DNA of 56,991 nucleotides, counting the filler, from Bipalium vagum (Eukaryota): assembly GCA_037834085.1 (NCBI GenBank). It is 3 parts of 3 records of this genome, joined end to end, with 100 filler letters (N's around TTAATTAATTAA, not from the genome) between each part and the next. Parts side by side here need not be neighbours in the genome. Positions count along the whole stretch, not along the records: positions 22,170 to 41,102 come from JBBMKC010015190.1; 2 more parts are not named here. One strand, 5' to 3'. Below are positions 22,424 through 24,237 of this stretch, in pieces (position 1 is the stretch's first letter; each line of letters opens with the position of its first letter). The notes under the pieces were generated by a model. The model was not told where the DNA came from. It did not search any database and saw only the letters and a program-made list of their open reading frames with translations. The position numbers were made by a program, and so were the translations under genes.

Positions 22424-24237
22424 CTTTAAATCACAATTGGAATTGATGAGCAGGTTGGACGGCTTCAGGTCACGATGGATCACGTTGGCAGAGTGGATGT
22501 ATTTGAGGCCTGAAAGGAAGAAGATGAGCGTCAAAATACGGCCACACAAAGAGCTTTGAAGGGTGAACAAGAAGACAGTCATCAGTCAACGAAATGTGCC
22601 ACAGGGTGAACCAGATGTCCGTTGTGCCTCTGTGCTGGACCAAGGATGGCAAGCAGTGGTGGAGAGGGCGTGCTGGGTAAGAAAGGACAGATGTAGAGAA
22701 CAGAAATTGCATCGGTCTCCCACACAGCGTCGGAAATGCATCTGACAACCTCTGTCGACTGGAGACATGACAGGGAAGTCACTGAACCACGAAATAAAGA
22801 CATTCCAGCACGCCATCTCCGAGACGCACACGAACAGGGCACACTTCCACGCACATGCACTCTCTCTCTCTCTCTCACACACACAGACACACACAAGAAC
22901 ACCGAAACAGACACAACGAACAAAAATTCGACGAATGGAACTCACCTCTGAGAATTTGGTAGAGAAAATAGCAAATGTGCTCCGAGCTCAGCTTTTGGTT
23001 CTTGCACAGTTTGTGCAGGTCCGTCTCCATGAGGGTCTGGACGATGTAGCTGAAAGGTGGGGGGCGGCGAGTTAAGGAAATGACCAAAAGCGCGACCTCA
23101 CCTGATCAGCACAAATGGACCGGGCCCGCGATTATTTAGCATCAATCAATAATTTAAATAATAATAATTATTAATAATAATAGCAAATTTTTAATCGATA
23201 ATGACCGCGACAGCTTCGGCTGAGGAGAGCTTGATACCGATTAGTTTTAATTGAAAGAGATCGTTTAAAATGGACAGTGCCTGTGGAAAGCTTGGTCGAC
23301 ACGGCTCCAACACAGCACGGGGGTTTTGGACTCACACGATAATTCATTAACAACAATAATAATATAACGACAGTCGCCCAATCTGCTCCCCGTAGCTCAA
23401 GCTGAGAACAAGGGTTTCGGACCCCCACCATAATTTGAAATTAAATACGTTTTCTTTAAAATAATTGATTAAAAATCGATATGGCTCCAACTGACGACGG
23501 GGTTTCGGATATTGATTAAAACAAAAAAACGAAACCGAGCGTTATCAAGCATTAATGGGTGGAAGCCGATCAGGAAACGTCAACGGACCAAAAACATTTC
23601 CAAATGACGGTCGACATTCCACACAACGGCGACTGAGATCAACGGAAAAATCAATAGAAATATTTACCGAATCATTTTTGAGCAAATAATGAAAAATCGA
23701 TAAAATCTGTTCTCATTAAATTAATTAAATTAAATTGATTTTCACTTATATCGATTTAAATATAAAAATATTGAATGAAAATGAAACGAAATGACAATAG
23801 TGAACGCAAAAGGATACAGGTCCTTCATCTCCTGGATGTCCTTGGCTGTCAGCAAGTTGCGGATGTCGATGATCTGTCAAAAGGTCGAGAGATCAGTAAC
23901 GGTCGTTATCAAGGGCAAAATAAAGGGTTGCTCACATTTTCATGGTTGAAGTGCATGAGGATCTTGATCTCTCGGTACGTCCTCTGGCAGTATGTTTGAT
24001 GCTCGAAAGGCGAAGTCCGTTTGATGGCCACGTTCGAAGCGTCCTTCGTATCGATTGCCGACCTGTACAACAGTGATAGATGTAAGAAAGTGGATTCTCG
24101 TTCGATGGTAACAATTCAAAGACCACTAACACGACTTGACCATAGGCACCTTCTCCGATAAACTTGAAGTTGTCGTAGCGAGGACCGACGTCGAATTCCA
24201 CGCCTCTAATCACATTTTTCGACGATTGATTTGCCAT
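22424..24237 (-). CDS. erk: ERK1/2-type mitogen-activated protein kinase, exons 1-5; remainder lies beyond the scaffold end
   Basis: Minus-strand exons 24237-24131, 24062-23936, 23873-23818, 23049-22946, 22509-22424. They give [163 protein letters not shown]-diagnostic [19 protein letters not shown] and [12 protein letters not shown] are present, as is the catalytic HRDLKPSN. Confidence 0.97.
22860..22895. repeat. Compound (CT)n(CA)n microsatellite in ERK intron 4
   Basis: ctctctctctctctctcacacacacagacacacac. Confidence 0.9.
23050..23817 (-). other. U12-type (minor spliceosome) GT-AG intron, ERK intron 3, 768 nt
   Basis: 5' splice site GTATCCTTT (23817-23809). Branch site TTTCCTTAAC (23080-23071), followed by 21 nt ending in the CAG acceptor. 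Both match the U12 consensus. Confidence 0.92.
23212..23511. repeat. Degenerate ~28-nt motif at ~90-nt period (3 clear copies, 1 weak)
   Basis: Starts at 23212, 23303, 23394, 23483. Consensus approximately RGCTCMARCTGASRAC.RRGGTTTYGGA. Confidence 0.6.

Follow-up and report, generated by a model that had tools for sequence, protein, structure and literature searches.

Is the third intron of a flatworm ERK gene a minor, U12-type intron, and if so, is it an ordinary inherited intron or a device that controls ERK expression? The question is raised by a stretch of DNA of 56,991 nucleotides, filler included (the window), for which a preliminary description had proposed a U12-type ERK intron with a possible regulatory role. 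The reading that we favour, with a probability of about 0.9, is that intron 3 is a GT-AG intron with a consensus U12-type donor and branch site, located at the phase-2 D-L|Y-I-V site of many animal ERK genes, that it was most likely inherited as an ancestral minor intron, and that it is likely routinely removed by the minor spliceosome. Intron 3 would thus probably be a minor intron of the usual inherited kind, as opposed to a novel switch controlling ERK.

The ERK gene

Five minus-strand exons with predicted borders (Table 1) encode 160 ERK residues without a stop, and a tblastn search of the window with a full-length protein of a relative found the five on the same borders and none later. 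The assignment of the host gene to ERK, made in the preliminary description, is well founded. The protein P0122 of a close relative, 355 aa encoded on a 1251-nt contig and so intronless, is identical to the window ERK at 147 of the 160 residues (92%). P0122 matches the solved ERK2 structure with E = 3.5e-163 and contains the TEY motif of the activation loop, which lies beyond the last ERK exon of the window. In a quick tree the window ERK groups with P0122 and trematode ERKs, that is, within ERK1/2.

Downstream of exon 5 the gene enters the first of two filler segments of the window (22070-22169 and 41103-41202), each composed of 44 N, TTAATTAATTAA and 44 N. The same full-length tblastn query found no 3' half of ERK in the 22 kb past the first segment; either the parts are possibly misjoined or the remaining exons are located elsewhere.

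Intron 3 interrupts a leucine codon (K-D-L|Y-I-V-Q, phase 2), exon 3 ending with ...GAC CT at 23818. P0122, which represents the spliced form in a close relative, reads K-D-L-Y-I-V unbroken over the predicted junction. The protein P0121 of another close relative is a genomic read-through: past the end of exon 3 it continues in a shifted frame as W-K-I-C-I-L-F, and the window in the same frame gives R-T-C-I-L-L. The common C-I-L is what GTATCCTT encodes there, and this comparison of proteins suggests that the same relative probably retains the intron 3 donor. Across intron 3 the window and a contig of run X1 have 0 differing letters, although X1 is possibly the window's own source and not independent. 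In this run, which is most likely DNA, no joint across intron 3 was observed, nor was a further copy of ERK at a likeness of 80%.

Three other splicing patterns were considered and rejected. An alternative acceptor AC at -8 leads to a stop at codon 147, and a weak in-frame donor TAA|GTGAAA at 23745 adds 24 residues within the kinase core; both conflict with P0122. A possible cassette exon at 23219-23102 (118 nt) is off phase and contains a stop.

Table 1. Positions of the ERK exons, the elements of intron 3 and the P450 gene in the window.
Feature	Position	Strand	Description	Basis
ERK exon 1	24131..24237	-	coding part, from ATG	tblastn and reading of borders
ERK exon 2	23936..24062	-		protein alignment of a relative and tblastn
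ERK exon 3	23818..23873	-	56 nt, ends M-K-D-L, phase 2, last bases CT	
ERK intron 3	23050..23817	-	GT-AG, U12-type, 768 nt, phase 2	
U12-type 5' splice site	23808..23817	-	GTATCCTTTT	
Predicted imperfect hairpin	23050..23109	-	U2-like donor region pairs with spacer and acceptor	
U2-like donor motif inside intron 3	23096..23104	-	CAG/GTGAGG, GT at 23101, 52 nt before acceptor	
U12-type branch motif	23071..23080	-	TTTCCTTAAC; candidate branch A 23073/23072 (-24/-23)	
Spacer	23050..23070	-	21 nt, CAG included, C-rich, first AG after branch site	
ERK exon 4	22946..23049	-	opens with split L codon, then Y-I-V-Q	
ERK exon 5	22424..22509	-	last exon found; gene then reaches the gap ending at 22169	
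Cytochrome P450	31783-33306	-	intronless, 507 aa	

U12-type signals

The U12-type donor, the branch motif, the CAG acceptor and the phase given in the preliminary description are confirmed at 23817-23050. The donor matches the published 5' splice site consensus RTATCCTTT, and the branch motif near the 3' end matches TTCCTTRAY (PMC8848931). The window contains GTATCCTTT a single time, where 0.29 would be expected. In a third-order model the probability of ATCCTT after GT is 1.4e-4 and that of CCTTRAC in 35 positions is 1.4e-3; TTCCTTRAY appeared in the last 40 nt of 0.1% of 5000 shuffles of intron 3. When donor and branch motifs were scanned for jointly, the plus strand gave 12 further ATATCC pairings, all away from the modelled exon borders.

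Exon 3 has CT, not AG, at donor positions -2 and -1. An exon end without AG is described as a mark of exclusive U12 use, whereas an exonic AG lets U1 take over (PMC10853781). Thus the donor should be a poor U1 site and fits the description of exclusive U12 use. For the same reason, together with its perfect consensus, it shows no drift, so that the intron is not in mid-conversion.

By-eye comparison with the minor snRNAs of Schmidtea is consistent with removal by the known minor-splicing route. Donor positions +4..+10 would be paired with U11 and, at a later step, with U6atac; we count seven pairs with the U11 5' end (one of them G-U) and seven with the U6atac box. U12 would pair with the branch motif, bulging the A at -23/-24; between Schmidtea U12 and the motif with its next two bases, 11 bp are possible, with one A bulged out. 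The first AG downstream of the branch site would then serve as the acceptor. From such signals we infer with high confidence that intron 3 is removed by the minor spliceosome.

The other introns of the window were said to have ordinary donors, and this holds for the four other ERK introns (GTTAGT, GTGAGC, GTGAGT, GTCAGT) and for five donors, picked by eye, of an HGSNAT-like gene (GTAATC, GTGAGG, GTAATT, GTAAGA, GTAAGT). The latter is a multi-exon gene at 35500-40130 (+), with all these donors U2-type. Inside intron 3, at 23296-23505, a unit of 30-40 nt is present in three degenerate copies with a spacing of 89-91 nt and without an Rfam match.

Homologous ERK loci

Metagenome contigs were scanned for any acceptor followed by Y-I-V-Q-x-L-M-E-T-D, which produced 64 animal ERK loci (L001-L064); this pattern selects loci with an intron at the site, and losses are uncountable by it. 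Exon 3 and its donor were recovered in 30 loci (10 U12-type, 20 U2-type), while 34 gave none. All recovered donors are in phase 2 and follow D-V or D-I.

The 64 loci collapse to 45 acceptor groups, and the donor is known in 24 of them. Nine of these 24 groups are U12-type, all with the branch motif (6 strict, 3 relaxed), L014 with its partial donor being counted among them; the other 15 are U2-type and none has it. Testing donor class and branch motif for association gives a Fisher p of 8e-7, which overstates independence: the U2-type groups have similar exon 3 peptides and look closely related, not like 15 independent events. Among the 21 groups without a recovered donor the branch motif is present in 10. 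The claim that the intron position is ancient and shared is thus supported by 64 animal loci with an acceptor there and by the nine U12-type groups. On the other hand, 15 of the 24 groups have become U2-type at this site, so ERK does not require the minor state.

Intron 3 of the window shares position and phase with all these loci, and its donor and branch motif with the nine groups. It differs from them in its spacer and in a nested U2-like donor, which is discussed below. The spacers of the 19 branch-motif groups are 9-17 nt long (median 12), and the 21 nt of the window exceed all 19.

Several similar ERK genes have a U2-type intron at this site (L002, L004, L005, L007, L020, L023, L035, L037, L046, L055-L058, L064 and others). 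Their donors are GTATGW after D-I and GTAAG after D-V, possibly a minor-to-major conversion series; such conversion is reported to be common in some annelids (PMC10639083). L029:206-395 and L040:3028-3217 each contain three tandem copies of the acceptor together with the first 15 codons of exon 4, and only the last copy is open.

Among the closest known counterparts is a vertebrate gene: that mouse Mapk1 is a minor-intron gene is already known, as is the presence of all four minor snRNAs in Schmidtea (PMC8848931, PMC6312358). Indeed, 11 of 14 MAPK genes are listed as minor-intron genes (PMC12332006). The mouse Mapk1 intron is described as having a consensus donor and the branch site GACCTTAAC (PMC8848931). 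The published forward primer for the retained U12 intron encodes R-F-R-H-E-N (PMC12332006); read against the solved ERK2, this peptide falls just before D-V-Y. The exact mouse position is inferred from this primer and from L011, a vertebrate-like locus whose exon 4 agrees with that of a fish Mapk1 at each of the 34 residues compared and in which 13 nt separate a CCTTAAC motif from the acceptor. The mouse and window introns are alike in the consensus U12 donor, the CCTTAAC branch core and the site after R-H-E-N...D-V. However, the mouse branch site is suboptimal and that of the window is the full motif, the spacer is 21 nt in the window and 13 nt in L011, and the split residue is L in the window and V in mouse.

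Dependence of ERK on the splice

Full-length ERK depends on the intron 3 splice, because retention of the intron and skipping of exon 3 are both computed to end inside the kinase domain, with stops at codons 122 and 126, respectively. ERK output needs this splice and would therefore depend on the minor spliceosome, which does not by itself make the step rate-limiting.

The preliminary description had put forward a rate-limiting control point. Intron 3 would then be always U12-spliced, but slowly, and act as a valve on ERK in the wound response or regeneration. The retention stop at codon 122 is compatible with such a role, as are the U6atac-dependent switching described for other minor introns, the reported requirement for ERK at the start of planarian regeneration, and the increased retention of Mapk1 in mouse AML cells upon loss of Rnpc3 (PMC12332006). 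However, the retained Mapk1 minor intron is reported to be undetectable or hardly detectable in both normal and SMA mouse spinal cord, and consensus branch sites, like that of the window, resist loss of SMN and form the least sensitive class (PMC8848931). Moreover, the main text of the U6atac switch paper contains no match to MAPK1 or ERK, and the persistence of minor introns may be due in large part to neutral processes, according to a survey of more than 3000 genomes (PMC10639083). We consider a valve of this kind unlikely, and any regulation of ERK dose via intron 3 is at most a possibility.

The 3' end of intron 3

The 3' end is the atypical part of the intron. The preliminary description called the spacer long and its tract pyrimidine-rich. 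The length stands: the branch A at -23/-24 is just outside the classic range of 10-20 nt, although inside the 8-30 nt working window of SpliceRack (PMC1557818). As to the tract, 16 of the 19 positions between the branch motif and the AG are pyrimidines, but only 4 are U, so that it is C-rich; the pyrimidine share of homologous U12 spacers varies from 0.22 to 1.0. The dual or transitional character suggested in the same place survives in part: the perfect donor after an exon ending in CT speaks against mid-conversion, whereas the major spliceosome could apparently use the 3' end. A transitional state is more plausible for L014, where a 96-nt intron combines a consensus branch motif with a partial or decayed donor GTATCCAAT.

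One possibility is that the long C-rich spacer allows the major spliceosome to take the shared AG, either with the donor at 23101, removing a 52-nt intron, or with the donor of intron 2, skipping exon 3; both outcomes lead to early stops, and the competition, perhaps gated by the hairpin, would set the ERK level. The motif at 23101 is the only CAG/GTRAG on either strand of the window, and it lies near the acceptor: among 5000 shuffles of intron 3, AGGTRAG occurred in the last 100 nt in 0.14% and anywhere in 1.8%. In having a branch A at -23 followed by the pyrimidine tract, intron 3 is similar at its 3' end to introns 2 and 4 of the same gene. The hairpin predicted in the last 60 nt has z = -2.55, and -2.65 in a second folding window.

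There are precedents as well. Introns in which a U12-type and a U2-type donor share an acceptor are described in CENATAC, MAPK12 (under U12 defect), DRAM2, PFDN5 and KANSL2; shared 3' sites, dual sites and U6atac switching are treated in sources among PMC8329584, PMC10853781, PMC11347168, PMC3728624, PMC8883539 and PMC2831892. These introns are like that of the window in having a U12 3' end open to a U2 donor with an unproductive outcome. However, they come with RNA evidence, and in CENATAC the competing donors are conserved, whereas here there is a motif alone.

Other observations also go against a shared acceptor. The nested donor was noticed after the fact, and GTRAG is present within the last 110 nt in 0 of the 19 homologous U12-type groups, which are distantly related. 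In a third folding window the hairpin z is only -0.23. The 52-nt intron would be shorter than all short introns modelled in the window (61-71 nt), the tract has few U, and dual-type 3' sites are reported to be rare in human cells. We regard such competition as improbable. About as improbable is its extension, in which the ERK minor intron became a two-spliceosome switch in this lineage, through a lengthened pyrimidine-rich spacer and the nested CAG/GTGAGG, with a decay-bound transcript, gating by the hairpin, and ERK dose tracking the activity of the minor spliceosome. If true, this switch would reside in an animal group with routine RNAi and regeneration assays.

Host organism and minor spliceosome

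The host is a flatworm, plausibly a triclad or a relative of triclads, as follows from the placement of its ERK and P450 proteins in trees. In the quick ERK tree the window protein joins trematode ERKs with support 99 inside a mostly flatworm clade; this tree was built from 46 manually selected rows and has long branches that come together near the cestodes. No named planarian ERK was found among the best 120 of 7703 matches. The best named matches of the window P450 are P450s of Dugesia japonica (45-46%), and it falls, on a long branch, into a clade of 8 rows with Dugesia P450s (support 98). The window also contains broken remnants of mariner-type transposases (Pfam Transposase_1) at 19181-19700 (+) and 51633-52181 (-).

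The coding DNA of Schmidtea and Dugesia is AT-rich. The genes of the window have a GC3 of 65-70%, as against about 25% GC between genes, and since such GC3 does not fit the coding DNA of these planarians, the link to a regenerating planarian drawn in the preliminary description is not supported. Further, two ERKs are listed for Schistosoma, so regeneration studies may have dealt with a paralog other than the window ERK.

By analogy with Schmidtea and Schistosoma, a functional minor spliceosome is likely to be present in the organism. In Schmidtea, orthologs of all snRNA types are reported, with E-values of 2.8e-13 for U11, 9.9e-14 for U12 and 5.8e-05 for U6atac, and with a sub-threshold U4atac match confirmed by RT-PCR (PMC6312358). 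Minor snRNAs and minor introns are also reported in schistosomes (PMC2770079, PMC10639083). Within the window, Rfam at gathering score gave 0 matches, minor snRNAs included.

Finally, it is hardly credible that the minor spliceosome was lost and the major one now cuts intron 3, leaving the U12 motifs as relics: although the 3' end would suit the major spliceosome and other animals often have a U2-type intron at this site (15 of 24 groups), both motifs are gone in 15 of 15 converted homologs and both are perfect in the window, the donor seems kept in the relative that encodes P0121, CCT|GTATCC is without the AG at the exon end through which U1 could replace U11 (PMC10853781), and related flatworms keep minor snRNAs (PMC6312358, PMC2770079).

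Significance

In the literature searched, no paper was found that names an ERK minor intron in a planarian, although MIDB, U12DB or the online tables of the survey may list it; Schmidtea and Dugesia are absent from the text and supplement PDF of that survey of over 3000 genomes (PMC10639083). Intron 3 would have larger significance only if a shared-acceptor switch or regulated retention were real. As an ordinary inherited minor intron, it adds a flatworm of the free-living type to those lineages in which the minor intron of ERK persists, and it may serve as a ready readout for RNAi against the minor spliceosome in flatworms.
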